Virus record (IMG/VR): IMGVR_UViG_3300025073_000880
DNA from: a virus
Lineage: Duplodnaviria > Heunggongvirae > Uroviricota > Caudoviricetes
DNA: 64,000 nt
Reading direction: 5' to 3' (one strand)
Below are positions 1,736 to 52,600 of the stretch, in pieces (within the stretch, counting starts at the first letter, position 1; each line of letters starts with the position of its first letter). Under the pieces are notes generated by a model that worked only from the letters and a program-made list of their open reading frames with translations, had not been told where the DNA came from and did not search any database. A program made the translations under genes and the position numbers.

Positions 1736-1736
1736 A

Positions 1737-5147: not shown

Positions 5148-5149
5148 AA

Positions 5150-5647: not shown

Positions 5648-5650
5648 AAA

Positions 5651-16460: not shown

Positions 16461-16574
16461 TCACCCGTGGCTGTTTCGGGCCATATGTCAAAGCATATAG
16501 GCGGGAATGATTTTACGTCACATCCCCGCTTACGACGCCTAATAAATTAGGATATGTAAGAGAACTAATTTGAG

Positions 16575-17232
16575 TTAGTCAGTTACACCTTTAAGCAAAG
16601 CACAAAGTGGGCTTTGTTTTCGTTCCAAACCAGCTTCAGTAATGAACTGGTCAATCTCTCCATCAACATCAGGGGCCTGAACGTTCATCATGAGCTTAGT
16701 GTCACGATTCGCCATAAAGCGATATCGGAAACAATTAAGATCAAGCAAGAACGCATAGCCTGAATATTCTTCAACAAACAATGGATTGTGCACGATGTTG
16801 ATTGAACCAAATGGGGTCATGTACTCACTGATTTCCAAACCGTAAGATTTATCTCCTGTTTTGGTTCTCAGCTGACCACGAGCCATTTCATTTATTGCCT
16901 GCAAAACAACACCACCACACATTAATACTTTTTGGTTATCACCATAAGTGAAGCCTTCTCGTAAAAATGTGTTAAAGTCTGGAGCTGTTAATGGGCCACC
17001 TTGATTTTGAACAAATCCTGTACCACCCTCAATAAATTCAAGGAGACCACCTGTAGTTCGTAACGGTTTACTGTTACTACCTGTAGTAGAAGCTTTTTCA
17101 CCCCAAATGAAAGCTCGTTCAATATCAAGGGCATGTTCAGTCGCCTTTTTGGCTCTTTGATAAACCAAGTCTGGGCCACCGTACAAATTAGCATTCTTCT
17201 CTGTGTCAGAAACACCAATGGTCGTTTTAAAT
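16575..17232 (-). CDS. Major capsid protein, last exon. The frame is open back to ~17232.
   Basis: Capsid-like C-terminal segment (..FMANRDTKLMMNVQAPDVDGEIDQFITEAGLE). The frame stays open upstream of the TTG listed in the track, right up to the intron D core. Confidence 0.6.
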
Positions 17233-17235
17233 ATT

Positions 17236-18258
17236 TGCTTTATATTGCATCAATAATGATGGGTAAACATCTCTGTTTACCACTATATGTCACCATATAG
17301 ACTCGACTATATCTTCACAAATGTGTGTTCAACGTATAGTCTGTGAGAATTTAACTATTAAATTTATACCGTATAGATAATGGTACACCATTAAAATATT
17401 GGCTATGCGATAATAACGACAAGAACTTAAACGATGGTTTTTTATTTAATCTAATACGATAATACATTCTATCACCACCATATACCCCTTTAACTGGAAG
17501 TATTTTAACCTCTATATTAAATTTTTGCCAAAACCACTTTTTTATACCTTTAACTTCAGATAATGTATAACTATCAGTACAAATAATTATAGAGTCATTT
17601 GATTTTATATAAGATCCATCGTCAAGATACCAAAATAATAAAGAATCCTCATCTAACAAGTTTAACCCACGTCTTGTTATATATCTTTTTTTATTTCTAT
17701 AAAAAATTCCATATATGTTAGTTAAGCTTGGATGAGAAATAGAGTGAGTATGATATTGAATATTACCGTTATTGTTATACCTATTAACATTATCTTGTAA
17801 AAAAATTTCATTCAACAATTGCTTCTTAAACAAGAGATAATCTAATTGCTTTTCACAATGACATAGTGACAATCTATGAAAACCGTCAGTTTGTAATATC
17901 AATGATGAATCACCCAATAATGTGCCGTAAATAATTGACATTTTCTCTTTTGATATACTTTCACCTTTTAATGTTCTAGCCTTAGAATAACTTTTATTTG
18001 TTTTTCTAGGTCTTCTGTCGTTATAATTTTTATAAACACATTTTTTTGAACAAAATATTTTATCTTTTCTATTTTGATAAAATAGTTTGTTGCACTGTTT
18101 ACAATTAATATACATAGTTATCTTTTCTGCTGATTGTCTCTATGTGTAAAATTCTTAGGGTTCGCTAGTAGTTTTCACCGCCTAGTATCCTATTTACACC
18201 ATAACAAGATATCCCAGCATATAGTTGAATTTTACTATACCCAAATTTTTATTAAAGT
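17236..18258 (-). mobile_element. Group I intron D in the capsid gene, carrying a LAGLIDADG HE ORF. Boundaries approximate.
   Basis: Core at 17284-17347 on the minus strand: CACAGACUAUACG (P7 5'), a P8 hairpin, AAGAUAUAGUCGAGUC (P7 3') and a P9 hairpin. This is near-identical to the Tetrahymena intron P7 strands CAGACUAAAUG and AAGAUAUAGUCGGACC. Confidence 0.7.
17351..18115 (-). CDS. Homing endonuclease: N-terminal zinc finger plus LAGLIDADG-type motif (LLGDSSL).
   Basis: CKQCNKLF...CSKKC zinc finger; IYGTLLGDSSLILQTDG. Sits inside intron D. Confidence 0.55.
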   Translation of the reverse strand: MYINCKQCNKLFYQNRKDKIFCSKKCVYKNYNDRRPRKTNKSYSKARTLKGESISKEKMSIIYGTLLGDSSLILQTDGFHRLSLCHCEKQLDYLLFKKQLLNEIFLQDNVNRYNNNGNIQYHTHSISHPSLTNIYGIFYRNKKRYITRRGLNLLDEDSLLFWYLDDGSYIKSNDSIIICTDSYTLSEVKGIKKWFWQKFNIEVKILPVKGVYGGDRMYYRIRLNKKPSFKFLSLLSHSQYFNGVPLSIRYKFNS

Positions 18259-18261
18259 ATA

Positions 18262-18608
18262 GTTGGTCAGCGGAGAGGATTGTGTAGTGTTAATGTTCTT
18301 AGCACTTGAATTTTCCTCATTCGCATTACCAATCAAGAACAAACCATCACCATCAGCTCCAGCAGCAGCCGCAGTCGCACCGAGCGAACGGCCACCTGAA
18401 GCAATAGTAATTGTTGTTGCACCAGCAATCGTAGCTACAAGCATTCTTTCACCAGTTCTGGCGTTAAGAATAACGTCACCAACCGTGAAAATATAAGCCG
18501 AGCTAGACCCAGCACTAGTTACAGTAATTGTTACACCACCTGAAGCGGAATAAGTTCCACTTACCTTTGCGTAACGTCCGCCATAAAAATCTTCGCATTT
18601 GTTAACCC
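18262..18608 (-). CDS. Major capsid protein, internal exon (~115 aa).
   Basis: Open frame ...CEDFYGGRYAKVSGTYSASGGVTITVTSAGSSSAYIFTVGDVILNARTGERMLVATIAGATTITIASGG..., bounded by the intron C 3' core and the intron D 5' end. Confidence 0.55.
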
Positions 18609-18609
18609 A

Positions 18610-19330
18610 TAATTGGGTATTACATCATTTCTGTGTAATTCTCGTGATATCGCACGAGGTCGGACTATATCATCATCCATAAGGATGTTTAACGTGTAGT
18701 CTCTGAGGTTTCTACTTTAATACCTACTTGATTTAATTCCTTCATCTGGTCAAATAATGATTTTTCTTCATCACTATATCCTTGTTTTATTATCCCAAGA
18801 ACACGACCAGTTTTAGAATCTCTCTCAGCCTTAGACTTATAATAACTCCTAGATTCTAAGAATCTTAAAAGTAATTCAGCCCTTGGCTTTTTTGAAATCA
18901 GATACGGTAGCATCAATTTTGTTATCACCTTAACGTCTTCCATTTTATTGACCGTTATGTGATAAGCTTTTTTATGATTAGGTTTTCTAGATGTTGTTTC
19001 TTGCCAAATGTGACCATTGATGCCAGATGCATCAAATATTTTTATAATCTCATTTATCATTACTACATCGGTGTTAGATAGAGTTATTCTTGGAACATAT
19101 CGTTTATTAGTATCATATACTATGGTGAATGTTCCCTCTCCATCCCATACGCCCGCTAACCATGCAATTTGATGTGTAGTTACCTGCTGATTGACCATTG
19201 TATTATTCATAATATTTTTACTTAGTAGTAATTATGACTTTAGGTTATTCCAGCAAATAGTTAAATTTTTAGTGGTCCGAGAATTTTCTAAACCACTTCA
19301 TTGAAGCTTGTTACCAGACTTACTCTGGGG
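18610..19330 (-). mobile_element. Group I intron C carrying a LAGLIDADG HE. The 5' boundary is uncertain (19211-19335).
   Basis: Core at 18640-18708: CAGAGACUACACG ... GAUAUAGUCCGACC plus the P9 hairpin CUCGUGCGAUAUCACGAG. Confidence 0.65.
18689..19210 (-). CDS. LAGLIDADG homing endonuclease.
   Basis: WLAGVWDGEGTF motif. Inside intron C. Confidence 0.75.
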   Translation of the reverse strand: MNNTMVNQQVTTHQIAWLAGVWDGEGTFTIVYDTNKRYVPRITLSNTDVVMINEIIKIFDASGINGHIWQETTSRKPNHKKAYHITVNKMEDVKVITKLMLPYLISKKPRAELLLRFLESRSYYKSKAERDSKTGRVLGIIKQGYSDEEKSLFDQMKELNQVGIKVETSETTR

Positions 19331-19334
19331 CATA

Positions 19335-20033
19335 TGCCTCTATATATCGCTATATAGATCAGACTATATCTTTACTACCACCTATTATTTCTAAAGGGGT
19401 AGACGCTTTGCGTCTAGTCGTTGAGGGCAAAATTTGATAATGCTTAAGATATCTAAGAGATTCTTCGAACTTTTTATCAATAGACTCAAACTGCTCTTTC
19501 TTAATTTTAGAGCACAGTGTACCATTAACATTTCTCTTTTGAAACATTGATAGTCTATACTCTATGTATTCGAGTATTTTTTTAGCTTGTCTTTTTTTGT
19601 TAGAGTGCAATTTATCTATTATTGCATCTAGTATTTTTTTAGTTGATCTATATCCCTCTACGTTAATAGACAGATAATCCATTGCATTGACAAACTTTTT
19701 ATTAGGAGTATGAAGAGTAAAATAAAATTTAGCTCCAAGCACATAAAATATTTCAGAAACCTTCTTTATCAATTCAACATCAGTATTACCAACACCTATC
19801 CTTGTAATAAACGAATATTGTCCATTACCATTGTTTCTTTTCTTATGAACTCCTTGACGTTTATTGGTTGTTAAATATCCCTCTCCATCAATAATTCCGG
19901 CCAACCAAAAAAAGTCACTATCATTAATCATATATTTTATTTTTTCCCTGCTGATTGTCCGCACTAATAGATTTTTACTAATCAGTACTATTAGATACTC
20001 GGAGTTTCCAGCATATAAGCAAAGTTTTTGTTA
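19335..20033 (-). mobile_element. Group I intron B carrying a LAGLIDADG HE. Boundaries approximate.
   Basis: Core at 19340-19425: ACGACUAGACG (P7 5'), P8 GACGCAAAGCGUC, AAGAUAUAGUCUGAUC (P7 3'), P9 UAUAUAGCGAUAUAUA. The HE stop codon lies within the P7 3' strand. Confidence 0.65.
19359..19964 (-). CDS. LAGLIDADG homing endonuclease.
   Basis: WLAGIIDGEGYL motif. Confidence 0.75.
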   Translation of the reverse strand: MRTISREKIKYMINDSDFFWLAGIIDGEGYLTTNKRQGVHKKRNNGNGQYSFITRIGVGNTDVELIKKVSEIFYVLGAKFYFTLHTPNKKFVNAMDYLSINVEGYRSTKKILDAIIDKLHSNKKRQAKKILEYIEYRLSMFQKRNVNGTLCSKIKKEQFESIDKKFEESLRYLKHYQILPSTTRRKASTPLEIIGGSKDIV

Positions 20034-20278
20034 AACCAGAGTCCAAGTGGATTTTTTAAACTCTGGGTTGCCTGTTTCCTTTTTAAGAATACCAGCTCCC
20101 GTCCAAGCCTTACCATCATACACTTTACCAACAGTAGTCAGTAAGGTTGTAAGCGGATGCTTGCGAGGTTCAAGTAAGAAGACTTTATCAACGGCATCCA
20201 CTACTAATCGCTGCTCAGTAGATGACGTTGAAGTATCTCTAGCAGCAGAAGCCACCGCCCCCTGATTGTGGGTCAATC
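20031..20278 (-). CDS. Major capsid protein, N-proximal exon (~80 aa).
   Basis: ..AVASAARDTSTSSTEQRLVVDAVDKVFLLEPRK.. frame. The TTG start in the track is preceded directly by TGA and by the intron A 3' end, so the exon is entered by splicing rather than by initiation. Confidence 0.5.
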
Positions 20279-21210
20279 AATGTTTACTTTATATCTCTAT
20301 AAAGATCGGACTATATCTTAATCCCAAAGGATTCACAACGTTTAGTCTCTGAACGTCTATTAATAAAATCAATTATTCTACTTTGTTTTCTGAATATAGT
20401 GAAAAACAAACCGTGATCAATAAACGATTCTACTCTTATCCCAAAACAGATTAACACCTTTTTTCTACCAGAAGAGAAATTACGTTCTATTTTTAATGTT
20501 TTTACACCTAATTTTTCTAAAAAGTCTTTAAACTCTAATATCCAACTACCCTCAGTTTTGCCAACACCAATTCTATATTGAATGTTTTCCTTATCTGGTC
20601 TCAAAGTTTTAGATATCCACCCATCACCATCCATCACTCCTGCGATAAAATGTTTTTTTATCACATCTGGTGCACGCCATATGACAAAGGGTATATGCGT
20701 TTTCTTGTTTGTCTGCTCCCAAAATATATCTTTTAACTTTTTAAACCCAACATTTATACAGTATTGTACTTGTGTTTTTGACACGTGACCGTTTGGCCAA
20801 TGCCTGTCTATCGGCTCGAGGCGATTAATATTCGCACGACAAGACGGTATTAACAGTTTTATACAAGCAAGTGTTCTATCTGCAAACTCAATGTCTATCG
20901 TCCTTAAAGAAAAATTATAATAATATCCATATTTATCTTTACTTTTAGATATACACCCATCAGTAAGATAAACTCCAAACAAATAGGCTAATTCTTTATT
21001 AATATTCTCGCTGCTGATTTTCTCTAAATCCATATTTTTACTCTTAGGTAATGAATTTCTAACAAGAATTTCCAGCATTTTGTTGTTTTCCAATATTACC
21101 CTCCGTGCATTACTGCACGGGTGCCCACCCATTTTTAGGCTCGCTATAATATGGAAATTGTGCCATATAAAATCTTTAAACCATAATCCCAATACCTTGA
21201 AATGAGATTA
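20279..21210 (-). mobile_element. Group I intron A carrying a double-motif LAGLIDADG HE. Its 5' end abuts the stop of the scaffold-like ORF.
   Basis: Core at 20288-20356: UCAGAGACUAAACG ... AAGAUAUAGUCCGAUC plus the P9 hairpin CUUUAUAGAGAUAUAAAG. Confidence 0.7.
20311..21132 (-). CDS. Single-chain LAGLIDADG homing endonuclease with two motifs.
   Basis: GVYLTDGCIS and FIAGVMDGDGWIS. The track ORF extends to 21192 via TTG and in frame to the scaffold stop. The internal Met (MGGHPCS) at ~21132 is the more likely start. Confidence 0.7.
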   Translation of the reverse strand: MGGHPCSNARRVILENNKMLEILVRNSLPKSKNMDLEKISSENINKELAYLFGVYLTDGCISKSKDKYGYYYNFSLRTIDIEFADRTLACIKLLIPSCRANINRLEPIDRHWPNGHVSKTQVQYCINVGFKKLKDIFWEQTNKKTHIPFVIWRAPDVIKKHFIAGVMDGDGWISKTLRPDKENIQYRIGVGKTEGSWILEFKDFLEKLGVKTLKIERNFSSGRKKVLICFGIRVESFIDHGLFFTIFRKQSRIIDFINRRSETKRCESFGIKI

Positions 21211-31621: not shown

Positions 31622-32632
31622 TTATGCGTCATAGTCTAAAAGATATTTATTAGAAATAGCCTTAAACGATAACCTCCCACCCCTATATCCAGACTCTACC
31701 TTTGACCTAACAACAACACCCTCACGATCAACCTCTGGATTTAGCATGCTCTTGCCATCAGCATATCTTAACATATCATCAACTGTTTTTGGCAAGATAA
31801 AGTTATCATCAATTACAGGCACAACGTCAAGGTTTAATGCTTCACACAATTGAACAAAATCTATAAAATCCAAAAAACACCCTGATTTTATATTATAAGC
31901 ATTAAAGAAAAATACCTTTTGCCCGGATAGTTTTAATGGATTTTTTTGAATACCCTCGCCTACAAGCTCTCCTTGCAAAGCCATGTTGTCAGGAAGCTTA
32001 TCTGGCAGATTAAGCTCTTTGGCTAATCGCCACTGAGTAACGTCACTCTCCTCTAATTCCAAATTACGACTACAAACACCAAATACTCCATCAAATTTAT
32101 AAAATGTAATGGACGATCCGTCTAATTTTTCTGTGACATAGAACCTCGACAAAACACCGCCCATGTTCTGAATCCTCTCTTCATCTGTTTTTGGGATAAA
32201 ATTTGGGAATGACCCTTTTACCTTACCCGATAAATAAGCGGGGATTGGCATTTCATACTTTATCACCCCAAGCAAATCAGACACTTCCAAGCCCTCCACC
32301 ATACCCTCTATACCTACACCCAACAAAGAGATAGGCATTACAAGCCCTTGGCTTATTGTGTCTTTCAATTTTACTGTTTTTAACCGTATACCTTCGACCT
32401 CAACACCATCAACCAACATCTTCTTCGGCTTTGATCCTCTTAACAAAAACTCATACTCAGGCTTTATTGGCAAAAACGAATCAATCTCATAATATAAAAC
32501 TAAATCACCGACATTAAACTCATCTTTTTTAACAATGACCCACCAATCGTTTATCCTAACAGATTCAATGAAATCAGCTTTTGGGATAACCCTTTTTTCT
32601 CGAACCCTTTGTATTGTTACCAATTTTCTCAT
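31622..32632 (-). CDS. ATP-dependent RNA ligase (Rnl2/DraRnl-like nucleotidyltransferase).
   Basis: Motif I TEKLDGSS (KxDG); EGVVVR (motif IV); LSFKAI (motif V). Confidence 0.6.
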   Translation of the reverse strand: MRKLVTIQRVREKRVIPKADFIESVRINDWWVIVKKDEFNVGDLVLYYEIDSFLPIKPEYEFLLRGSKPKKMLVDGVEVEGIRLKTVKLKDTISQGLVMPISLLGVGIEGMVEGLEVSDLLGVIKYEMPIPAYLSGKVKGSFPNFIPKTDEERIQNMGGVLSRFYVTEKLDGSSITFYKFDGVFGVCSRNLELEESDVTQWRLAKELNLPDKLPDNMALQGELVGEGIQKNPLKLSGQKVFFFNAYNIKSGCFLDFIDFVQLCEALNLDVVPVIDDNFILPKTVDDMLRYADGKSMLNPEVDREGVVVRSKVESGYRGGRLSFKAISNKYLLDYDA

Positions 32633-33289: not shown

Positions 33290-35350
33290 ACTATGTTCCT
33301 TACCGCCACCACACCACCACAGCTCTGCCTGCTCTCCCTCTCTCCCTATGAAGCAGTCTATCTATTGCTATATTAGTATTGGTAGACTATCCCTCTCCCA
33401 GAATGCTGTCTGGGTCATTGGGTCTGCTTCGGCGGTCGGTCGGTCGTTTAGCGTCGCTTTCATACCGCTAGAATATTTAAAGGCTATTCTCCATGTATGA
33501 ATATGGTCTTTACCACTCATCTTGGAAGCCCAAATATTTTGAGCCTTTTGATCAACGGTAAAATATCTATATAATATCCATATAAAAAACCACCATTCGT
33601 AGCTTACTGCTTACCTATATACCCAACGACGAGTTTGGTAGCAGGAAAGCCACAAATAGTGGTTCTTTTCGTCGTTGGCATATTTTCCTCTTTCTCTCTA
33701 CACCCATTACAGCATACGCATTTAACTGTGTCAAGACATCCCTAAAAAAAACCCTGTGGATAACTCATAAATATCACCTATTTTACCAACAAATTCCACA
33801 CCCTCTTACCATAAAAATTGCATAAATACACCACCAGTACCCCACCAATAAATAATCCAAATGTAACTAAACAATATACAAGCAATGCAATAACACTATA
33901 CACTACAACATCAATTAAAAATAACATATGTTTATATTCTTAGTTTATATTCTTAACCCTCAACACATTGGTGATATGATTAGTAACTACTACTATCTTA
34001 AACTTATAGATTTTGCGGGCAGTTAATGTCGCAAACATATTGCAATCATCGGCTTTGATGCCCACCAGCTATAAGAGTCCAAGGCATTTATGCAATATGC
34101 CAAGAGTTAAAAATATTACCTTTTATGCAATTTCTTTATCTTAACACACAAAACTTTACTTGTCAATCTAAATAACCATAAAACACCAAAACTGTCAATA
34201 TTACCCAAATCCTAGCCGGATTTTTTTTGACCCCAACTCTTTTTCACCTCTCCACCACCCTACCCAACTGCCCCCCCCCCTACCCCCAACCATCACACCA
34301 AAAGGACAAAACCTAACTAACACTCAACCTCCAGCTTCAATTCTGGGGTTCTACAAGCCCCGTACAGCATCGAAACTATACTTTTAATGATAATGTACCA
34401 CTCAGCCTTTTTAGACCCCTGTTTTGACACTCTTTTTGGATGACCCCTGGCTTTGAGGCCTAGGGCTTAGAACCCAAGCCTCAGGGCTCAAGGCTTAGGG
34501 CTTAGAACCCAAGGCTTAAAGCCCATAACCTGAAACCAAAAGCCAAAAGCTCAAGGCTTAAGGCTGGCAACCAAAAGATTAGTAACCACAAAGCAATGGG
34601 GCAACATAACCAGATAGACATACTCTTTCCTAAAATTTTATCCGCAGAGCGTGAGGGTACCATATATAAGGGGGGGGCACATTTGGGGGAGTCCCCGCCA
34701 AGACACTCCCCCCCCACCCTTCCACCACGCAACCACAAGCCTTCCGCCTTTGGGCTTTAGGCTCGTGAGTTGTGGGGGGGCTTGTAAGTTTTTTAGGTTA
34801 GGGCTTGAGGCTTGGGGCTTGGGGCAAAATACCTGTCGGGGAAAATGATATAGACTTGACTGTAACATTTTTAGTCTTTTGGCTTGTTCTATTAGTTTCA
34901 AGTGTCGGCAAATATACCTTTTACGACTCTTAGCTTTGGGCTGTGGATAAAAAAAACTACTCACTTGACAAGCAGAAAAAAATACTGTATCCTAATAATA
35001 GGAAGGAATGAACTGTACCATTGGCATATAGGCTAATATCTTTACACATTTTTGTCGAAAAAAAGGGACTATGGGTGATTATTCATCCACCTTGTCGGCT
35101 CAATGTGTTAGTAATTGGCTTGTAGAGCTTGGAGGCTCAAGGCTTGGGGGCGGGTAAGATAATAGTTGATTACTGCATCGGCTATTCCCGCCCTTAGCGG
35201 TTGGGCGTTCCATATGCCCTTTCGTCTTATGACGATTGCCCTCCGCCTTAGAGCCTTAAAGATCCAAAAATTATTTAACATTTCGCCATTTTTAGCTTAT
35301 TTTTCAATTTTAGCCAAAAAATGGGGCTTAAAATTGACCCATAAGAGATT
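33290..35350. other. Non-coding hub about 2 kb long where transcription diverges. Contains iteron-like repeats, hairpins and G/C homopolymer tracts. Candidate replication origin or regulatory region.
   Basis: No credible ORF. Minus genes end at its left edge and plus genes start at 35357. Contains an 18-bp direct repeat TAGGGCTTAGAACCCAAG x2 (34461 and 34494), GGCTTGAGGCTTGGGGCTTGGGG, and C10/G8/C8/G7 tracts at 34271, 34670, 34698 and 34774. Confidence 0.5.
34334..34432 (+). repeat. Conserved ~100-nt intergenic element, copy a.
   Basis: CTTCAATTCTGGGGTTCTACAAGCCCCGTACAGCATCGAAACTATACTTTTAATGATAATGTACCACTCAGC...TTTTGACAC. The two other copies are at 37949 and 62343 (reverse orientation). Confidence 0.6.
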
Positions 35351-35838
35351 AAAAAGGTGAAAGCGATAAAACATATGGCTAAAAAAACATTATTACAATT
35401 CGAGGCAGTGAAAGAGGGGGAGGCTCTTCTCCTCAAGGTCAAGGCAACAAAAAAATTGGAGGAGTTATTTAAAAATCTATCCGAGAGTTCAACAGGGCTT
35501 TCTGGTCGTTGGTATAATACCAACAATGAAGGGCTTCAGTTTTATACCAACAATGAAAAAATCAATGAGGCAATGAAGAAGTCAGTATCTTATTTTGACG
35601 AATATTTTTTTGATGATTTCGGGTCTGGGCTGATTGATGGGAGCAGAATAAATGTGGCTATCCTACGAGCTGTAGGGATTAGTGAAGGATTAACAATGCG
35701 GACAACAGAGCTTATCACTCACGATGGATTGAAGAATTATATTGAGAAGTTGGCACAATTTTCTAAGGATTTATACCAAAATTTTTTGAAAAAAGATAAA
35801 ATAAAGGCTTTAGTCACTTTTGAGATTTAAAAAAAAAT

Positions 35839-36540
35839 ATGAGAAACTTTAAAATCGGATTTGAGCTCGAGGGGAAATTTAATCAAAATATATACTATAA
35901 GACCAGAAAGCTAGGAGACTATAAGGGGGACGGATCTGTCACTGTTAGCGATTATCTTGGGAATTCAATCAGAGAAGAAGAATTTGCGAGTTATGCTAAT
36001 TTTGTTAAACCTACACTTGAGTTGTTGCGAACATTCATAATCGGAGAAAATTATATCTACAACAATACTTGTGGACTTCACTTGCATGTGTCCTTGTTTG
36101 ACTATCCATCCAGCATATTACAAAATCTTGCTACTTCGTGGAGTTTTATTTCAAAACTACAGGGAGAGGCTGGGACGATGTGTGAATGTGTTCAAGCGAG
36201 ATTAAAGGGTAATCGTTTTTGTCAAAAGTATAATAAGGCAAATTTTATGTACGACGCCGAAAACGGAACAAAATACCGCTTTTGTCGTTTTCATCCTATC
36301 GGGACGCTTGAGTTTCGGTTTTTAGCTCCTTGCGAGCATAGGGAGGACAACATTATGAAGTTATTGACATTGATTGATGATTATTTATTTTTAGCTAAAA
36401 AAATATACTCGCAAGAAGTTGAGGATGAAAAAACAAAAAATCAGAAAATTATTATTAATTTTGAAAAAATAGAAAATGCAGAAACAATAAACATTGTGAT
36501 AGATAATTGTCAGCCTTCTAGCATTAATCTTAATCTTTAA
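35839..36540 (+). CDS. Amidoligase-like (glutamine-synthetase-like amidoligase_2-type) protein. Tentative.
   Basis: N-terminal FELEGKF acidic motif and CGLHLHVSL His motif. Directly upstream of a class-II GATase-like gene. Confidence 0.35.
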   Translation: MRNFKIGFELEGKFNQNIYYKTRKLGDYKGDGSVTVSDYLGNSIREEEFASYANFVKPTLELLRTFIIGENYIYNNTCGLHLHVSLFDYPSSILQNLATSWSFISKLQGEAGTMCECVQARLKGNRFCQKYNKANFMYDAENGTKYRFCRFHPIGTLEFRFLAPCEHREDNIMKLLTLIDDYLFLAKKIYSQEVEDEKTKNQKIIINFEKIENAETINIVIDNCQPSSINLNL

Positions 36541-36546
36541 ATAAAT

Positions 36547-37323
36547 ATGTGTTATCTAGCAACAATTATTCCAACAAAAAAAAATAAAAAACTAAGTGAG
36601 GAAACCCAAAAAGCCTTTTTGGAAATTATGGTAGCCAAAATAAATGCTAATCCGCATGGCTTCGCCATGCTCACATCGGCAGGGCAAAAAATAAGAACCC
36701 TCAATCCAAAAATTTTTTATAAAATGATTGAAAAGAACATTGAAACCGATTTTGATTTTATGGTTTTTCACGCTAGATATGCTACGGCTGGGGATATGAA
36801 TTATCAAAATATACATCTATGGGACATTGACGGTTGGCATTTCGGGCATAATGGTTGGACAGGTAGGAATAGAACAAAAAATGTTAAATCTGATAGTTTA
36901 CTATTTTTTGAGGAATTGGCGGAAAAAATAAATACGACTGATAAAAAAGATGATAGCATTACTAAGGCAATCAATGAGACAGCTATATCTCACAATTTTA
37001 CTGGAAGGGCAATGTTATTATCGCCAAACAATGAAAAAATGTACTTATTCGGTGATTTTGAGGTTTATGTTCTTGATGATTGCATAATTATATCATCTGC
37101 AACAATTAGTTTTGAATATTCTGTAATCTCTTATGGCTTGGCTTTTGATAAAGAGATTGAATCATTGAATCAAAACATTGAGGGGGTTTACACCTTTGAC
37201 TTTGAATTATCTGAATTTAAGTTTTTGGCTAACAATGCAGAACATCCAAAAGAATATACTAACAGGACAATAGACTTCAATCGGTCTGTGGGCTTTGGGT
37301 TTGATTATGATCACAATTATTAG
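36547..37323 (+). CDS. Class II glutamine amidotransferase-like Ntn hydrolase (Cys2 nucleophile).
   Basis: Starts MC(Y); HARYATAGD and FGHNGW motifs, cf. the GATase_2 motifs MCGI / RYATxG / HNG. Confidence 0.55.
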   Translation: MCYLATIIPTKKNKKLSEETQKAFLEIMVAKINANPHGFAMLTSAGQKIRTLNPKIFYKMIEKNIETDFDFMVFHARYATAGDMNYQNIHLWDIDGWHFGHNGWTGRNRTKNVKSDSLLFFEELAEKINTTDKKDDSITKAINETAISHNFTGRAMLLSPNNEKMYLFGDFEVYVLDDCIIISSATISFEYSVISYGLAFDKEIESLNQNIEGVYTFDFELSEFKFLANNAEHPKEYTNRTIDFNRSVGFGFDYDHNY

Positions 37324-37948
37324 ATTTTACGATTTGGTGTTTGGGGGAATTACATAAATCCCCTTTGCATTAAATCATAAAAATAAAACTATGTATTATT
37401 GTGATTATTCATTGATATACTGTATGCCCGATGACAATACACAGGAGCTTTGTGTCAATATCTACAATCAACGAATTATTCGTGTTTATTCTGAAACTAT
37501 TGTAGGTGTATGGGATGATAGTGAAGATGTAGAAAAAACAATTAAAGAAGTCGCAGAAAGTAAAAATTTTGTGCCGTTTCATTTAATTCACGAAGATTAA
37601 AAATTTATGAAATTATTAACAAAAAAAATTATTGAGCGTTTTCGAGAAGTTGGTAGTCAAGAAAACAATCCTAATCCGATTGTTATAGCTAAATTTTTCA
37701 ATCCAGTTGGAGCTGGGACTTGGTATGCGACAGAATACAACGAGACAGAGCAAGTTTTTTTTGGCTATGTATCAATTTTTGGTGGGGGATGTGATGAGTG
37801 GGGTTATTTTAGCCTTGCAGAATTGGAGGAGTTGAAATTGCCTTTTGGTTTTGGGATAGAGAGGGATATTTTTGGAAAAGAAAAAAGGATAAAGGAATAT
37901 TTAAAATAAATAGAATGATGTTTTATAGTTTTAATGTTTAGCTTATAT

Positions 37949-42857: not shown

Positions 42858-43964
42858 TTACTTAAATAATTTGTTTTGATTGTTACAATATAAAAACCTT
42901 GGACTGAACGGAGACGACTTTCTTTTATATCTTTTACACATAAATTGCCTCATTGTTTTTAACCCCTCCTGTCTATTTGAAGTAAACAGATTGTTTACCA
43001 CGCAGTCTCCACATTTAGACACCTCTATCTCATGAGCCATTTGATTTTCTGTCCAATCAACCCCATGATTATACGCCATAGCAGTTGTGTTATAGCTAGT
43101 TGACTTTTTTATTAAAGGGTCTCCGCAACAACACTTACCAGAAGATATGTGGTGCATATCGTTGTCTGCTATGCTATATGGTATATTATACTTTTCTAAT
43201 TCCTCTAAAACTGGTTTATATAATTCTTCTCTTATTGCTGGTTTCAAATTTAGAAGACCCATTTGTATAAAACTTTTCTTTGGTATTTTAAGATGTTTAG
43301 TTATAAATTCACTATGTTTTTTGTTTTGTGGGACTATCTTTATCCCTTCTATTGTAAAATAATCTGCATCATTAAACATCTCTACTATTTTTTCATCGGA
43401 CACACCTGGTATAAATGGTTGTATTCTTATGCCAACCTTGAAACCTCTATCTTTTAATGAACGATAAAACCTATACCTTTGTTCTATTGTTACTACATTA
43501 GATTCTATATCCATTCTATTATCAACATTTGTAATACTTAGTTGAAATGCGTGTAATTTTGGTTTTATTTCCGCCCCGTAAACAGAAAAACCCTTAGTAG
43601 AAAATAATATACTTATTCCATATCTGTTAGTTATATCTATCATTTTCTTTGTAGCCTCAAACTTTTCCTCTGATGGTTGAAATGGGTCGCTCATCCCCCC
43701 ACAATGCCAAGTTATTCCATCGTTTATTAACACCTCAAGATAGTTTGTTTTATTTACATTCTTATCATCAAATATCTTTTTTAGTTTTCTTTCTATGTAT
43801 TTTTCATCCCCTACCTGTAAGTCTTTTTCAAACTCCATTATTACTCTGTTGTTAGCAAAGCAATACTTGCAACCATGCGAACAATTTTTGTATGTATCTA
43901 CCCGTATAGGAAGACCACACAATCCAAATTTGCTACTAACACTTAATGGTATAAATTTCTTCAT
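42858..43964 (-). CDS. Radical SAM enzyme.
   Basis: CSHGCKYC (CxxxCxxC) near the N-terminus. Confidence 0.65.
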   Translation of the reverse strand: MKKFIPLSVSSKFGLCGLPIRVDTYKNCSHGCKYCFANNRVIMEFEKDLQVGDEKYIERKLKKIFDDKNVNKTNYLEVLINDGITWHCGGMSDPFQPSEEKFEATKKMIDITNRYGISILFSTKGFSVYGAEIKPKLHAFQLSITNVDNRMDIESNVVTIEQRYRFYRSLKDRGFKVGIRIQPFIPGVSDEKIVEMFNDADYFTIEGIKIVPQNKKHSEFITKHLKIPKKSFIQMGLLNLKPAIREELYKPVLEELEKYNIPYSIADNDMHHISSGKCCCGDPLIKKSTSYNTTAMAYNHGVDWTENQMAHEIEVSKCGDCVVNNLFTSNRQEGLKTMRQFMCKRYKRKSSPFSPRFLYCNNQNKLFK

Positions 43965-44232: not shown

Positions 44233-45453
44233 TAGTTACTACCAAGAATATTTACCACAGTTGCAGGTAGCTTGACTGCTATCAACCAAACAAAATCCAC
44301 AATGTTCACAATATGGAACATCATTTTGCTTTGGTTCTTCAATGCTTGTGTTGTATATAGTTTTTTCTTCGCTCATATTAGATGACAGATGACAGTGGAA
44401 ATATACTTTTTTCTCTGTTCGTTGCCTCACATAATTCATCTGGTGGGTTTTCATTTCTTTTTTTTGTATGAGGAGTTTCTTTCCCACACAACCGACACCT
44501 ATACCAATAATAAGTTTCTGACAATGTAGAATTTATATCGCTCATTAACGGAAAATAATCATGTTTCATATATAGTTTAAAGTAACATTTTTTGTCTTAA
44601 TCTATCTTCCCCAATTTCACAATAATTTTTATTTATTTCACATCCTATGAAATTCCTGCTTAAATCAATTACGGCATAGCTGGGATTATTTTATCTTCAA
44701 CGCTAATCTCACCGAACAGATTTTTGTTTTTATTCAATTTCATTTTATTTTTCTCGCTTAATCTGGAGGCTTGGATGGTATTGGGGCGTGAGATAGTGTC
44801 CCCATTTAGTTTTACATCTACGCAATTTTTTTTAAACACCCCCAAGCCCCCCAGACTAGGCGAGAATGTCGCCTAGAGAGGTTATTTGGTTATACCTTTA
44901 ACTGCCCACATTACTGATTCTTCTAGCTTTGTTTTTGCTAATGCAATTTCACGACCGTTTTTCTCATTCAAGCCAACATGAATTGCCAGCAATAATTGAT
45001 AAGCTACATCTTTGATGTTATCAATTCTCATCGCATCTTCCTCTGAAAGGTTATGATATATAGGATGAAAAATGTTTTCTAGTTCTCCCGTACATTTATT
45101 TTATTATTTATTTTGTCATTAAGACCCATTTAACATCAGGAAACGCTTTAACAAAGCTTTTCTTTGCCTTTGCATTATTACTCTTCGCCTTTTTTATTAT
45201 TTCTTTTTCAGTTATTTCTTTAAGTGGTATTATGAACAAACTAATGATAAACGGATTCCCAGCCCACACGTGCCAACTTCTTTGTGTTTTATCAAGCCAG
45301 ACATAATCAGATATTTGTTTCCCATTCGCTTTACCCATATTTTTAATTCTTAGAGCCACCCTGCCCCCGTATTAGAGACCTCACGCTTGTCGTTCACCGT
45401 GGGTGAAGGAGGTGCAACAATATACAAAGGGCAGAGTGGCTTTATGAAAAAAA

Positions 45454-46935
45454 CTAAATAATAATTCGTTTATACCTGTCGGAGTTAATCGTATTCATCA
45501 TAACCTCATAAGGCGTTTTATTCTCAACTGCCATCTTGAATATTACAGGAGAAAAGCCGGAAACCATTGACACGCCTCGCTCACTCTCTTTGACTGGCAA
45601 ATTCTCTCCGCTTGCATTTACATTCCAAAACACTAGATTCGGTCTGACATACCCCAGCTGGGAATACTTTTGTTCAATAACCTCAAAATTAGTTTGGTCG
45701 CCATAAGTAGCCTGGTCAAACTCCATGTCTGAAATAATGTAAATCGTGTCTGGCATTTCATCTTCCGGCGTGCTGTTCTGAACGGCAGTTGTTAAAATTA
45801 AATCAAACACAGCCTGAACGTTGGTGTTAGCTACGTCCCCAAGCTGAATGCTATTCATTTTATCCCTCAAATTTGCACCTTGAACCTTATGTAATTTCGG
45901 CTGTCCTGAAAATGAAATAAAGTAATTCTGGAATTGTCCTTTATTTCTCTCAGCAAAATATAGTGCCAACGAAACAGATACAGATATTGGGACGCCAGTC
46001 ATCGATCCTGATGTGTCAGCTACTACTAAGGCATTTTTCCCTTGTGTATAATCAGGTAGCTGATTCCATAAGGCTTCAAGCGTTTTAGAATAATCCGCCC
46101 AAACGGAATTGTATATTTGATATGGATATAATGTCCCTGCATTTATCTTCACCTCACCTTTTTCTGCCTTTTCAATAAACTTTTCATACCTCTTCTCATC
46201 GTGTTTCTTAAAGACATTTTTATAAATTCTTGACGCTTGGCTTGGAACAACAGAATAATTTATATCCGGCCACTTTTTAGCTGACATCTTTTCTTCAACT
46301 GTCGCTATTTTTTTTCTAATAGACCTGATAAGTTTTCTATAAGCCATTTCATCTATCCCTAACCCATTAGCCATAAATCTTGCTTTTTTTCTGGTATTAA
46401 GGCTTGAAGCGTTAATGGTTGGAAGCCATTTAGCCAGCAGGGACGGTTTATCCTCCTTTTGGTCTTTTTCCAGTTGGCTTTTAATCAACAAGAAACATTT
46501 TTTATTATCAAAAAATAAATCATCAAAGCGACCATACTCTTGGACAAAATCTACAATCTTTTCAAATATAGAAGGTTCATTTTCACCTAACCATTGCAGA
46601 CAAACCCTAAATAAGGCTCGCTCACCCTGGCCTCCCCTTATATCTCTAAGATAAAACAAAACCTTAATTGCCTTTTCTCTATCTTCCGAAAACGCTCGTT
46701 TGAATAAATCAAGGGCTTTTTTAGGCTCACCCCTCATCGCTCCAGCCTGAGCATAAAAATCTAAAAGAGCCGACTGCGTTCGAGTAAAAGTCTTTGCCTC
46801 GTTTTTTGTTCTCCCATAGGACGTGTTTACATACATCCCATTGATTAAAGAATTCCCACTTGATTTCTTTGCTCCTTCAGGAGCTTTCATCTCATTGATG
46901 TTTTTCATATTTTTGAAACAAGACGCTTTTAACAC
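45454..46935 (-). CDS. rsr: Ro60/Rsr ortholog (TROVE domain plus vWA domain).
   Basis: YLRDIRGGQGER TROVE region and VVADTSGSMTG MIDAS motif. 493 aa. Confidence 0.65.
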   Translation of the reverse strand: MLKASCFKNMKNINEMKAPEGAKKSSGNSLINGMYVNTSYGRTKNEAKTFTRTQSALLDFYAQAGAMRGEPKKALDLFKRAFSEDREKAIKVLFYLRDIRGGQGERALFRVCLQWLGENEPSIFEKIVDFVQEYGRFDDLFFDNKKCFLLIKSQLEKDQKEDKPSLLAKWLPTINASSLNTRKKARFMANGLGIDEMAYRKLIRSIRKKIATVEEKMSAKKWPDINYSVVPSQASRIYKNVFKKHDEKRYEKFIEKAEKGEVKINAGTLYPYQIYNSVWADYSKTLEALWNQLPDYTQGKNALVVADTSGSMTGVPISVSVSLALYFAERNKGQFQNYFISFSGQPKLHKVQGANLRDKMNSIQLGDVANTNVQAVFDLILTTAVQNSTPEDEMPDTIYIISDMEFDQATYGDQTNFEVIEQKYSQLGYVRPNLVFWNVNASGENLPVKESERGVSMVSGFSPVIFKMAVENKTPYEVMMNTINSDRYKRIII

Positions 46936-47296: not shown

Positions 47297-49441
47297 TTAA
47301 CCCTTGATTACCGCTAATGGATTTAATTCCACAAGTATTTCAACCAAATCTGCCTGGTTTTGCATAACTTCATCTATTGGCTTATATGCGCCAGGGGCTT
47401 CCTCCAAATCATCTTTGTTCCTCATCCCGTGAATTATCCCTTTGTCATCCATTATTTTCTTTTGTTCATCAAAGTCTAACTGTTCACACGCCGCCTTTCG
47501 CCCTAGCCTTCTCCCTGCTCCATGTGAACATGATTCAAACGATTCTTTATTTCCAAGACCTTTGACGATATATGACTTTGTTCCCATTGAACCAGGAATT
47601 ATTCCGATTGTTCCTTCTCTTGCTAAGGTCGCACCCTTTCTGTGAACCCAGACGTTCTGTCCAAAATGATTTTCTTGTGTGGCGTAATTATGAGCAATGT
47701 TAATAAGTCCACTATTGTCGCCATTTTCATTTTTAACTATAAAATTAGTTATTTCAAAAGCAGTCTTGTAATCCATCTCCCTTAAAAAACAGCCAACAAT
47801 TCTATCCATCATCAATTTTCTATTTGCCAAGGCGAACTCTACACAATACTGCATTTCTCCGATATATGCCTGCCCCTCATCACTATCAACTGGTAAAAAT
47901 GCCAGCTGCCATTCTTTCGGGACTGAACTGTGCCATTTATCGTTTAATTCAACAGCTAATTTGTTGTAATAGTCAGCCACCTGCTTGCCTAGGTTTCGGC
48001 TACCACTATGTATCATTATCCAGATATGCCCATCAGATCCTTTTTGTATTTCAATAAAGTGGTTACCACCGCCAAGAGTTCCTATTTGTTTTAGAGCAGA
48101 GTTATATTGCTCTTTGATTATTGGTTTCCCAACATCATAGTTTGTGGGCATTAAATCCTCGTTTTGTTTTTCTTTATGATGATTAAATCCAACTGGTATT
48201 TGCTTTCTTGTCTCTCCCATTATTTTTTTTATGGTTTCAGTCTCAATTTCAGTTAGAGATGTTTTGACCGCACACATTCCGCAGTTCCCTGTAATAAATA
48301 TTTTATTGTTTCTTCTGGCGATAAAATAACCAGTCTCAACTACAAAACAATACTTCTTTCCATCTTTTATCTTTATTTTTTTAGGTTTACTAAATCCAAC
48401 ATAATTATTTTGCGTTTGATATACATGATACCAATCTTTCCAGTTCTTTTGTTTACTCCTAATAATACCTATACCCGCCCTTATCCCATTTAGGGCACAT
48501 ATATATTGGATAGCATCTGCGTTTATTTTATTTGTCGTAGCATATGTTTTGTGATGTCTTTTTTTGTCTATTGAGCCGTCCCAATATAAATATTCATCAA
48601 AAACAACCTTTGCCTGATTTTGGTTACAGTTATACAAATCGGTTAAATCTTTATCGCAAACCCAATCTACTTTAAAACTGATTGATTCTGTCCCATCTTT
48701 ATGAAAATATTCTTTAAAAAAAACATTAGACTTTTTTAATAAAAATTTACATCTCTCTATCTTTCTTCTTTTCTTGAAGTGCATTTCAATAGTGGTATGC
48801 TTGTTTGATTTATTTCTTATATGTCCATCAGCCGACGCCATAACTCTAATAGCTAGTTGCTCATCAGATAATTTTATGCCAGATTCACGCGTAGGGAAAG
48901 TAGTTCTAATGGAATAATAATCTTGTTTTTTACATTTCAACAACATTTCTCTAAAATCCTTGCAAAAATAAGTATAATCATTTTTCTTCCTGCCATAGCC
49001 TTTATAAACCAACATTCTATGTTCATCGCTTAAAACATGGTCTAATCCATATTTATTTTTATATTCAGTAAAATTTTCACAAGGCTTAACGATATATAAT
49101 AACGGTTTACTGAAAAAAGATGTTTCTTTATAATTATCCCAAACTAAAACGTCTTCGTTGTTATATTTATCAATAGTTATCCATCCGTTTTTAGTTAAAA
49201 CTTCGGTTTCTTTATCCACTGCCCCGATATCTACACCCACAGCGTTTGGAATTATTACGCCTTTGGTCGCCAATACACCACCGATAGGCATACCGTAACC
49301 AACATGGCTGTCAGGCATGATAGCGATGTGTTTAAATGCAAATGGAAGATTCGCAAGATTCTTGGCTTGTGCTAATGCTTCATCCTCAATGTCCTTGAGC
49401 CACATCTTTATTGGTATTTTTTCGGTTGCAACAACTTCCAT
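47297..49441 (-). CDS. rtcB: RtcB RNA 3'-phosphate ligase interrupted by an intein.
   Basis: IMPDSHVGYG, GGGNHFIEIQ and SCSHGAGRR motifs. About 313 aa are inserted between VGVDIG and CGMCAV. Confidence 0.8.
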   Translation of the reverse strand: MEVVATEKIPIKMWLKDIEDEALAQAKNLANLPFAFKHIAIMPDSHVGYGMPIGGVLATKGVIIPNAVGVDIGAVDKETEVLTKNGWITIDKYNNEDVLVWDNYKETSFFSKPLLYIVKPCENFTEYKNKYGLDHVLSDEHRMLVYKGYGRKKNDYTYFCKDFREMLLKCKKQDYYSIRTTFPTRESGIKLSDEQLAIRVMASADGHIRNKSNKHTTIEMHFKKRRKIERCKFLLKKSNVFFKEYFHKDGTESISFKVDWVCDKDLTDLYNCNQNQAKVVFDEYLYWDGSIDKKRHHKTYATTNKINADAIQYICALNGIRAGIGIIRSKQKNWKDWYHVYQTQNNYVGFSKPKKIKIKDGKKYCFVVETGYFIARRNNKIFITGNCGMCAVKTSLTEIETETIKKIMGETRKQIPVGFNHHKEKQNEDLMPTNYDVGKPIIKEQYNSALKQIGTLGGGNHFIEIQKGSDGHIWIMIHSGSRNLGKQVADYYNKLAVELNDKWHSSVPKEWQLAFLPVDSDEGQAYIGEMQYCVEFALANRKLMMDRIVGCFLREMDYKTAFEITNFIVKNENGDNSGLINIAHNYATQENHFGQNVWVHRKGATLAREGTIGIIPGSMGTKSYIVKGLGNKESFESCSHGAGRRLGRKAACEQLDFDEQKKIMDDKGIIHGMRNKDDLEEAPGAYKPIDEVMQNQADLVEILVELNPLAVIKG
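48284..49222 (-). mobile_element. Intein (about aa 74-386 of RtcB) with a LAGLIDADG endonuclease domain.
   Basis: Begins AVDKETEVLTKNGWITI (block A-like, Ala1). Ends ...KIFITGN followed by Cys+1. Internal LAIRVMASADGHI and YLYWDGSIDKK motifs. The exteins total ~401 aa, the normal RtcB size. Confidence 0.6.
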
Positions 49442-50337: not shown

Positions 50338-51549
50338 TTATTTATTAAAATACATTAACCTTTCAAATATAGCTTTTATCACATTTACCGTAACAGCGTT
50401 TCCCGCCATTTTATATTTTTGAGTGTCTGATATTTTTACTCCGTCAGAACCTACATCGCACCAATCGTCAGGGAACCCTTGAAGCCGCATACACTCGGTT
50501 GGTGTAAGTCTGCGAATACGACAGCCGTCAAAAATACCATGTTTGTCTTGTGCCGTAACTGTAAAAGCCGGATCATTATTTTCTTTAAATCGCCTACCAT
50601 CTTGTCTTTTCTTTAGCCTATCAGGAGTTAATACGGGGACGGCATATAACCCTGTTTTTGCCCCAAGTCCCCCAGATTCACTTGCTATTGTGGTTGATAT
50701 ACCACTTGGGTCATATACTCGATTCCCTTGCGGACCGCCCACTACCTGTTTAAGTCCTACTTTAATTTGTTTTGGTTGTTTGTAATCAGTCGCGGTTAGT
50801 GCTGACACCCCCCCCCTTGGGTCAAAGATTCTTGCTCGTTCTCCTCGCCCTGAGTTATTGGTACTTCCTGCGATTTTAATGTAAGAGTAAGTTTGTTTGT
50901 TGCTTTCTCCGATAGGAAATATTTTTCGTCCACCAATTCCTCCAAAATATCCGATAATAAACACTCTTTCCCTGTTTTGGGGGACTCCAAAATTTTTGCT
51001 GTTAAGAACCTGCCACTCAACGACATACCCCAAGTCGGAGAGAACCCCAAGTATTGTCTGGAAAGTTTTTCCCTCGTCATGAGATAATAAACCTTTGACA
51101 TTTTCGAGAACCACAAGTCTTGACCGTTTTTCGGCGAGAATCCTTGCGATGTCAAAAAACAATGTTCCTCTTGTATCGTCAAATCCTCTCCTCTTGCCAG
51201 CAACGGAGAAACTTTGGCAAGGAAATCCGCCAACCAAGAGGTCAAAGTCTGGGAGTTGTTTGGGATCAATTTTTGTTGCGTCCCCATAGTTTCTGTGATT
51301 TGGGAAGTGTTTTTCATAGACCTTAATTGCATATTTGTTAATCTCGGAATAACCAACACATAGTGGGGTTGTCCCGTCTGAAGTGCGAAGCATTTTGTTT
51401 GGCTCATTAGCAAACCTGACCCTCCTTTGTTCGCATTCTTCCTTTTCGGATTTCGTGCTGATATGTTTGCATTTAATATAATCTTCATACGCTTGTTGTA
51501 TTCCCAAAGGTAAGCCCCCAATACCAGCAAATGCGTCGAAATATCTCAT
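50338..51549 (-). CDS. DNA (cytosine-5)-methyltransferase.
   Basis: FAGIGG (motif I), GGFPCQSFS (motif IV), ENVKGL (motif VI). Contains an in-frame G9 tract (plus C9 at 50808-50816). Confidence 0.8.
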   Translation of the reverse strand: MRYFDAFAGIGGLPLGIQQAYEDYIKCKHISTKSEKEECEQRRVRFANEPNKMLRTSDGTTPLCVGYSEINKYAIKVYEKHFPNHRNYGDATKIDPKQLPDFDLLVGGFPCQSFSVAGKRRGFDDTRGTLFFDIARILAEKRSRLVVLENVKGLLSHDEGKTFQTILGVLSDLGYVVEWQVLNSKNFGVPQNRERVFIIGYFGGIGGRKIFPIGESNKQTYSYIKIAGSTNNSGRGERARIFDPRGGVSALTATDYKQPKQIKVGLKQVVGGPQGNRVYDPSGISTTIASESGGLGAKTGLYAVPVLTPDRLKKRQDGRRFKENNDPAFTVTAQDKHGIFDGCRIRRLTPTECMRLQGFPDDWCDVGSDGVKISDTQKYKMAGNAVTVNVIKAIFERLMYFNK

Positions 51550-51985: not shown

Positions 51986-52600
51986 TTATAAAGTTATATC
52001 GCTTTCTATTTCATTACCCCAAGCATCCCAGCCTTCTGTTTTTTGTCGAGCAAAGAGTTCTATTCTTGGAATATCACCAAATAATTCTATAATTTTATCT
52101 CTGAACACTTGCGGTTTTTCACTATGTTTTGTCCGACCTGTGCTTACAAAACTTGAAACACTATTTGATTTCACAAGCGAATGAGCTTTCCCTTTGACTG
52201 CGAGTAAACACACCTCTTGATTTGATTTCGCATAATATCCTATTCCGAAGAAAGGCGAACCATCTTTATTTGTCTTGAGCCAACTGAAACCAAGCGTCTT
52301 ATATTCGAACCCCCAAGCCTTAATAACCTCTAGTGCTTCCTGTAATTTTGGAAATGTTGCCCACATCATCAAAACGGAAGTGCTATCCGCGATCTCATTT
52401 ATTGGCAATTTTTTAATAGTTTCCGAAGACATGGTTTTGTATTGATAATTTACCCCCCCCTGTGGGACTCCACCGTTTTGATAACTCCACGGGGGGTCTG
52501 CGTATATTATTTGATATTTTTTCATATTTATCTCCGCCCTGCCGTGCCAGCCGCCCCCCAACTTGTCGTTCCGCCAGAGCGGAAAGAGAACAATCGGCAC
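51986..52600 (-). CDS. MT-A70-like DNA N6-adenine methyltransferase.
   Basis: IIYADPPWSY (DPPW motif). Contains an in-frame G8 tract (plus C8 at 52453-52460). Confidence 0.55.
   Translation of the reverse strand: MPIVLFPLWRNDKLGGGWHGRAEINMKKYQIIYADPPWSYQNGGVPQGGVNYQYKTMSSETIKKLPINEIADSTSVLMMWATFPKLQEALEVIKAWGFEYKTLGFSWLKTNKDGSPFFGIGYYAKSNQEVCLLAVKGKAHSLVKSNSVSSFVSTGRTKHSEKPQVFRDKIIELFGDIPRIELFARQKTEGWDAWGNEIESDITL

Follow-up and report, generated by a model that had tools for sequence, protein, structure and literature searches.

Layout of the locus

The window analysed here, a 64,000-nt stretch of DNA from a tailed phage, contains a plus-strand block at ~35.4–41.4 kb that consists mostly of small ORFs, is flanked on both sides by minus-strand blocks and is directly preceded by ~2 kb in which no convincing ORF is seen. 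This block opens with three genes, termed U, A and B, which follow one another on the plus strand. U opens the module at 35375..35830 and encodes 151 aa from the ATG start assigned by gene callers, with the longest ORF (157 aa) beginning at a GTG codon at 35357. A (35839..36540, ATG start) encodes a compact, 233 aa carboxylate-amine ligase of the Amidoligase_2 family with a glutamine-synthetase (GS) fold, and B (36547..37323) encodes a putative class-II GATase-like Ntn amidohydrolase of 258 aa, of the GATase_4 / YafJ-EgtC type, that starts with Met-Cys. A sequence-only reading of this DNA, made without database searches, had described A and B as an adjacent plus-strand pair, and both ORFs are present exactly as it gave them. 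Read from the sequence, the U-A junction measures 8 nt (35831-35838) and the A-B junction 6 nt (36541-36546). Two further ORFs lie downstream of B, one of 69 aa (37391-37600) and one matching PF11171, the DUF2958 family (37607-37909). Promoter and terminator scans inside the U-A-B module gave no signal above chance, and an Rfam search of 33.0-38.2 kb returned no match.

The same phage, with a genome of about 92.5-93 kb, recurs across numerous JGI, ENA and Logan metagenome assemblies. Its gene content includes an SU10-type capsid and portal, GroEL, GroES, RtcB, an RNA ligase and a DUF2828 protein, together with three DNA methyltransferase genes (N6/N4, MT-A70 and C5) and a glycosyltransferase/methyltransferase cluster. 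No match was obtained when U, A and B were compared by tblastn with 50,697 GenBank phage records, when the region was compared by blastn with GenBank phages, or when A was compared by tblastn with 72,556 plasmids.

A is a compact GS-fold amidoligase

As a single sequence, A matched nothing in Pfam, PHROGs, NCBIfam, PADLOC or the PDB sequences, and a word-indexed homologue search retrieved only A itself. An exhaustive HMMER search identified 175 representative homologues with E-values of 1e-3 or lower, and for 125 of these the value was 1e-10 or lower. In an alignment of 69 of these sequences, residues Glu9, Glu11, Gly12, Asp31, Ser33, Glu46, His81, Arg121, Glu158 and Arg160 are invariant, and the motifs GFELEG (Glu9, Glu11, Gly12), CGLHLH (His81, His83) and TLEFR (Glu158, Arg160) are invariant or nearly so. 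Glu9, Glu11, Glu46, His81, Arg121, Glu158 and Arg160 lie within motifs (ExE, GxHxH and ExR) that characterise the superfamily. The FELEGKF and CGLHLHVSL strings on which the sequence-only reading had based its amidoligase call are therefore real; they sit at family-invariant positions, with conservation far beyond chance.

Although the window protein alone does not match the Amidoligase_2 profile PF12224, 38 of the 69 homologues do, the best at 3.3e-9. When the A family was aligned to annotated amidoligases by hhalign, LUZ24 gp18 was linked with a probability of 93.6% and CW02 gp9 with 88.7%. An AlphaFold2 model of A, calculated with the 69-sequence alignment as input, reached a pLDDT of 84.9, and a Foldseek search of the viral models in BFVD with this model gave 47 matches at E ≤ 1e-3, mostly annotated phage amidoligases. 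On the basis of the PF12224 matches, the model, the Foldseek matches and the hhalign links, A belongs to the GS-fold amidoligase family (Amidoligase_2) as a compact member with a glutamine-synthetase-type catalytic fold, so that the amidoligase-like assignment made from the letters is borne out through the family, the single sequence having given none. A has the fold of the ATP-dependent carboxylate-amine ligases in the superfamily of glutamine synthetase, gamma-glutamylcysteine ligase and PafA, and its invariant acidic, His and Arg residues form the predicted counterpart of their catalytic set.

A separate set of Cys and His residues in A (Cys115, Cys117, Cys165 and His167) is shared by the close subfamily and, in part, by sequences outside it, and from this pattern may represent a candidate metal site.

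B resembles stand-alone class-II GATase-type hydrolases

Searched against the same collections as A (Pfam, PHROGs, NCBIfam, PADLOC and the PDB sequences), the single sequence of B gave only sub-threshold GATase matches, to PF13230 (E = 0.017, 14.5 bits against a cut-off of 23 bits) and to a GlmS-like PHROG (3.3e-4). The word-indexed search again returned only the query, and a single-sequence AlphaFold2 model had a pLDDT of 32.3. Homologues of B were collected as the neighbours of A homologues in the fetched loci. Every one whose start falls inside its locus begins with Met-Cys, the window protein opening with MCYLAT, and residues Cys2, Gly38, His75, Arg77, Gly82, Asn88, His90, His101, Asn102, Gly103, Asp116 and Gly153 are invariant across 15 homologues, as are the motifs His75-x-Arg77-x-x-Thr-x-Gly82 and His101-Asn102-Gly103. 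The earlier description of B as a Met-Cys-initiated Ntn hydrolase with RYATAG and HNG motifs thus rested on genuine features, which fall at invariant positions of the family.

Matches to PF13230 (GATase_4) were obtained for 14 of the 15 homologues, the best at 1.3e-7. Against proteins of known structure, the B family profile matched 3mdn (2.8e-8), human GFAT1 (1.7e-4) and the YafJ-like 1te5 (1.9e-4), with weaker matches to GlmS and PurF, the latter at 0.1. The HMM alignments place Arg77 on the Arg of the GFAT1 HTRWATHG motif, Asn102-Gly103 on the GFAT1 HNG motif and Asp116 on the Asp of the 3mdn TDS motif. By reference to GlmS and PurF, we take Arg77 to be the alpha-carboxylate ligand, Asn102-Gly103 the oxyanion hole and Asp116 the alpha-amino ligand. 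At the level of the family, B therefore combines a Cys nucleophile directly after Met, the glutamine-site residues and the profile match of a class-II GATase, an assignment that the sequence-only reading had made and that only the family-level search recovers. As judged from these alignments, B keeps every residue that class-II enzymes use to hold free glutamine or a gamma-glutamyl group and to cleave the gamma-amide. A synthase domain is absent, and the stand-alone GATase_4 / YafJ-type proteins (3mdn, 1te5) are closer to B than are the glutaminase domains of amidotransferases (GFAT1, PurF). The profile matches and the glutamine-site residues mark B as a stand-alone Ntn amidohydrolase with a predicted site for free glutamine or a gamma-glutamyl moiety.

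U is the third partner of the enzyme pair

No convincing match to U was found in Pfam, PHROGs or the PDB sequences, and comparison with A, B, LUZ24 gp17 and CW02 gp8 detected no homology. U was accordingly rejected as a degenerate copy of A or B, and as a relative of the ORF that precedes the amidoligase gene in LUZ24 or CW02, all comparisons being negative. Within its own family, Ser43, Trp46, Gly83, Asn93, Leu97, Arg98 and Lys131 are invariant. The C-terminus usually consists of a hydrophobic residue, Glu or Asp, and a second hydrophobic residue followed by the stop codon. The window protein ends in TFEI and lacks a GG[QE] sequence. Exceptions to the C-terminal pattern are found in L018, L027, L040 and P0160, and in the L006 orthologue the penultimate residue, usually a conserved Glu/Asp, is Gln. 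With ~150 aa, U appears to be a folded alpha/beta domain rather than a disordered tag. It matches no described family, and a constant third partner of the enzyme pair appears to be new.

A single apparent fusion of U to A, in P0123, was discounted. The gene model behind it is eukaryotic, derives from one Sphagnum contig and is missing the last third of U, which points to splicing introduced in gene calling as the likely cause.

Conservation of the three-gene module

Sixteen complete, non-redundant U-A-B triads (A below 80% identity) were found, all in uncultured phages and all with constant order and strand, and U lies directly upstream of A in 16/16. Wherever a fetched locus had room for them, U was upstream of A and B downstream of it on the same strand. 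Loci selected through distant U homologues showed the same succession of U, an Amidoligase_2 gene and then a Met-Cys ORF, and loci selected through the B motif with a hand-made DNA pattern contributed three more triads. As judged from this gene order, U is an obligate partner of A and B. The junctions across related loci range from -41 to +112 nt; at many of them the stop codon of one gene overlaps the start codon of the next, and on this arrangement the three genes are probably coupled in translation. All-against-all clustering showed that only the U, A and B families recur, and the best explanation is a single module of three co-translated genes, U, A and B, present in uncultured tailed phages.

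The sequence-only reading had suggested that the small ORFs on either side of the pair might be its partner or target. The upstream ORF proved to be a strictly conserved partner, but the downstream ORF at 37607-37909 is not conserved with the pair. Neither this DUF2958 ORF nor the 69-aa ORF recurs alongside A and B in related loci, and both were ruled out as module partners on that ground.

Two arrangements depart from the simple triad. In L019 a COOH-NH2_lig gene and a second GATase follow the triad, so that this locus connects the compact module with the classical cassettes, and a group of 228-aa B-like proteins occurs without U, with a divergent amidoligase-like gene of 418 aa two ORFs upstream. 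Pairing of a ligase with a GATase is therefore the general rule, and U is confined to the compact subfamily.

The loci that carry the triad are phage-like, and the phages concerned come from groundwater and peat metagenomes. The L006 and L032 triads are located near a divergent junction beside the terminase, as in the window. One copy was found in a MAG of Candidatus Doudnabacteria (CPR), which hints at ultra-small bacterial hosts.

Relationship to known cassettes and pathways

Cassettes that combine an amidoligase with a GATase are distributed over many groups of phages, among them LUZ24-like and phiEco32-like phages, OM43 phages, actinobacteriophages and crAss-like phages. The resemblance of the window pair to such cassettes, first suggested from its motifs, is real by the hhalign links of A to LUZ24 gp18 and CW02 gp9. 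As in the phiEco32/LUZ24/CW02-type cassette, the genes for an Amidoligase_2 GS-fold ligase and for a class-II GATase-like protein with Cys1 lie side by side in a tailed-phage genome, outside its structural region. The proteins of the window are, however, much shorter, with 233 aa for A compared to 391 aa and 258 aa for B compared to 510 aa. In LUZ24 and CW02 the Amidoligase_2 and GATase genes are accompanied by ATP-grasp genes and by AIG2/UPF0131 genes of gamma-glutamylcyclotransferase-like type, with COOH-NH2_lig also present in LUZ24-like phages, whereas the plus-strand island of the window has no ATP-grasp, AIG2/GGCT or COOH-NH2_lig (PF14395) gene. Among the related loci, only L019 adds COOH-NH2_lig and a second GATase. 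The module of the window is therefore a reduced variant and not a full member of the cassette family. Conversely, U is obligate here and absent from LUZ24 and CW02. The enzyme pair is thus already known, and U-A-B is a compact variant of the phiEco32/LUZ24-type amidoligase cassette with a strictly conserved extra partner. Envelope modification, secondary metabolites, nitrogen metabolism and DNA hypermodification have been proposed as roles for the classical cassettes, and in the literature searched these have been computational predictions only since 2009.

In some cellular pathways, GS/GCL-fold ligases work in pairs with GATase-like hydrolases, as in EgtA/EgtC of ergothioneine synthesis and PuuA/PuuD of putrescine use, and GmaS works with the GATase-like subunit of N-methylglutamate synthase. 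The relationship of the phage module to these gamma-glutamylation pathways is one of analogy only, since no sequence-level orthology to their enzymes was found. Of the GATases concerned, PuuD belongs to class I and B to class II. Unlike the cellular pathways, the module contains no recognisable enzyme acting on the intermediate, unless this is U.

A second comparison is with pupylation. Pup carries a GGQ/GGE end, which U lacks, U being an apparently folded protein of ~150 aa. The hydrolase that accompanies PafA is its own Dop-type paralogue, whereas A is accompanied by an Ntn GATase. A small disordered tag with a GGQ/GGE end and a Dop-type deamidase were thus not found in the module.

Proposed mechanism and alternatives

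By analogy with the cellular pairs, A would form a gamma-glutamyl-type amide that B would cleave or use, and U would be the acceptor, its presenter or a partner acting on the intermediate. This reading is put forward tentatively, with somewhat less than an even chance of being correct. A would consume ATP to convert a carboxylate into an acyl-phosphate, the likeliest carboxylate being that at the gamma position of glutamate, and would then join the activated group to the amine of an acceptor to give a gamma-glutamyl-type amide. B would recognise this amide and either remove it or pass the amine on. U, as the family-specific third subunit, would present the acceptor or be the acceptor itself, or would act on the gamma-glutamylated intermediate, and could accordingly be a specificity subunit, a carrier or an intermediate enzyme. 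The target would probably be a host or phage molecule handled as infection starts, because the module heads a block of small, early-type genes, an argument from gene layout only. The position of U-A-B as the first genes after a strand switch, and of the L006 and L032 triads near a divergent junction beside the terminase, was counted in favour of this timing. Against early action, the promoter scan was at chance level and early expression is assumed from the layout. The gamma-glutamyl reading itself draws on the greater proximity of B to stand-alone hydrolase-type GATase_4 proteins, on the gamma-glutamylcyclotransferase-like genes carried by related cassettes (LUZ24, CW02, Phage-ZRK32) and on the precedents of EgtA/EgtC, PuuA/PuuD and GmaS. 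In Firmicutes an AIG2 cyclotransferase reportedly takes the place of the GATase-like peptidase partner, according to the description of Pfam PF12224, and such a replacement fits cleavage of a gamma-glutamyl amine rather than supply of ammonia.

True ammonia donors that hydrolyse glutamine have the same conserved residues as B, and the one-to-one pairing of ligase and GATase, including the second pair in L019, would also suit an amidotransferase complex; both points were counted against the gamma-glutamyl reading. In such a complex B would hydrolyse free glutamine and deliver the ammonia to A, and the carboxylate activated by A would become a carboxamide, making the pair a split counterpart of asparagine synthetase or GatD/MurT. 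The substrate could be a small molecule or a Glu/Asp residue of U or of another protein, with U serving as scaffold or substrate. GS-fold ligases natively take ammonia as their nucleophile, and this, the complete class-II amidotransferase set of glutamine-binding and catalytic residues in B, the apparent translational coupling of the paired genes and the penultimate Gln of the L006 U orthologue all speak for an ammonia relay. It is nevertheless considered rather unlikely, given that B is closest to stand-alone YafJ/EgtC-type hydrolases and that the gamma-glutamylcyclotransferase-like genes of related cassettes point to gamma-glutamyl-amine products; in addition, we know of no GS-fold ligase that receives ammonia from a GATase partner. 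A further idea is that the module is a minimal system of protein or carrier modification modelled on PafA/Pup, LysX/LysW or RimK/S6, in which a PafA-like A would glutamylate U or attach it through its hydrophobic-Glu/Asp-hydrophobic end or Lys131, and B would edit, trim or reverse the linkage. This idea is improbable. U has the appearance of a folded domain instead of a disordered tag, its C-terminal pattern is broken in four cases, the sole apparent U-A fusion (P0123) may be an annotation artefact, and Asp116 of B, the predicted alpha-amino-binding residue, is better suited to a free gamma-glutamyl group than to the C-terminus of a protein.

Roles that have been suggested for the larger cassettes were weighed in the same way. 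Remodelling of the envelope for superinfection exclusion, through altered peptidoglycan or surface peptides, follows the proposal of cell-envelope modification made by Iyer et al. 2009 for phiEco32-type cassettes, as cited in PMC10580990, and a general auxiliary role in nitrogen metabolism, through boosted host glutamine/glutamate metabolism, follows the proposal for Phage-ZRK32, which carries a gamma-glutamylcyclotransferase (PMC10945688). Both ideas are proposals only; no secreted or membrane character is apparent in U, A or B on reading the sequences, and a dedicated, strictly conserved partner such as U argues against generic metabolism, so that a role of either kind has little chance of applying to this module. 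A and B could instead decorate a modified base in the phage DNA and so evade restriction. Amidoligase and amidotransferase genes are found next to thymidine-hypermodification genes in metagenomic viral contigs (PMC8989533), and the window phage, with its N6/N4, MT-A70 and C5 methyltransferases, invests heavily in DNA modification. Pfam annotation, however, identified no thymidine-hypermodification genes in the window, and 5-HMUDK, aGPT-Pplase, dUMP hydroxymethylase and TET/JBP were absent from it and from the other triad loci, where only U, A and B are conserved together. Base hypermodification is accordingly very doubtful, and the least favoured of the readings weighed here.

Significance

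U-A-B is the smallest self-contained version of an amidoligase-GATase system found, with three short proteins, a fixed partner and no auxiliary ligases, and is for these reasons a tractable system in which to find the substrate. Were the module only a metabolic accessory, the result would still be a useful annotation, in that it would allow the U family to receive a name and some 175 compact amidoligase clusters to be annotated. Should A act on U as a tag or carrier, the module would represent a previously unrecognised tagging or carrier chemistry used as infection begins. If the gamma-glutamyl reading is correct, and a host molecule or protein is modified at the onset of infection, U-A-B would constitute a new type of reaction in phage takeover or counter-defence.

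A conserved Cys/His set in the amidoligase

Four residues of ORF A, the 233-aa Amidoligase_2-family ligase, make up a CxC...CxH set (C115, C117, C165 and H167) that does not vary among the 12 closest homologues and is found in most sequences of the 69-member alignment. The set may form a structural metal site, a feature of a kind that, to our knowledge, has not been described for amidoligases.

Ligase and GATase genes in related loci

On one related contig (L019, 4168-6433), a second ligase-GATase pair lies downstream of the triad of partner protein, ligase and class-II GATase-like genes. The ligase of this pair is of the phiEco32-type COOH-NH2_lig family (PF14395, 2.8e-19) and its partner is a Met-Cys GATase_6/7 protein. 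A separate phage group is formed by L036, L047, L052, L054 and about eight similar IMG/VR loci, which encode a 228-aa Met-Cys GATase_4 protein resembling that of the triad and lack the gene for the 151-aa partner protein. In these loci the 228-aa gene is preceded by an ORF of 130-143 aa and by the gene for a 418-aa protein, which has no Pfam match and a weak likeness to amidoligases (hhalign, 73%). The metagenome contig L026 carries four large ORFs in tandem (26-6944, about 480-660 aa each), which match the amidoligase of the triad only weakly (E about 1e-3 for each) and look like a paralogue array from a different, larger family.

The ORF-poor stretch upstream of the triad

Immediately 5' of the triad, at the strand switch, about 2 kb of the window (33300-35350) is without convincing ORFs and is locally higher in GC content. 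Short repeats of the GGCTTAGGGCTT type are present at 34456-34590, with extra copies near 34802 and 35134, and a poly-C run (34263-34281) and a poly-G run (34669-34687) are inverted relative to one another. No Rfam match was found within 33300-35350. Possible identities for this stretch are an origin, a genome end and a regulatory region.

Other genes of the window

On the minus strand at 1737-8639, genes for glycosyltransferase, methyltransferase, polysaccharide deacetylase and radical SAM/SPASM proteins are densely clustered, which is unusual for a phage. GroEL (Cpn60, about 54.3-56.0 kb) and GroES (Cpn10, about 30.3-30.6 kb) are both phage-encoded on the minus strand and are widely separated, and three DNA methyltransferases are located near 50338-51549, 51986-52600 and 61124-61897. 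A 49-aa minus-strand ORF at about 44880-45030, near a radical SAM gene (42858-43964), has, on a near-identical contig, a precomputed match to PF24729 (Acb2_Tad1_hairpin), a fold that phages employ in sponges for immune signalling nucleotides.

Within about 15700-21200 on the minus strand, no more than a 203-aa fragment with a TTG start (16575-17186) matches the SU10-type major capsid protein. Because this fragment sits amid three LAGLIDADG homing-endonuclease-like ORFs of the same strand (17351-18115, 18689-19210 and 20311-21192), the arrangement suggests that the capsid gene is interrupted by introns or inteins. A LAGLIDADG-type insertion, possibly an intein, also appears to interrupt the 714-aa RtcB RNA ligase (47297-49441, minus strand). 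Together with the neighbouring DUF2828/DUF7788 protein (45454-46935, minus strand) and a second, separate RNA ligase (31622-32632), RtcB looks like part of an RNA-repair set.
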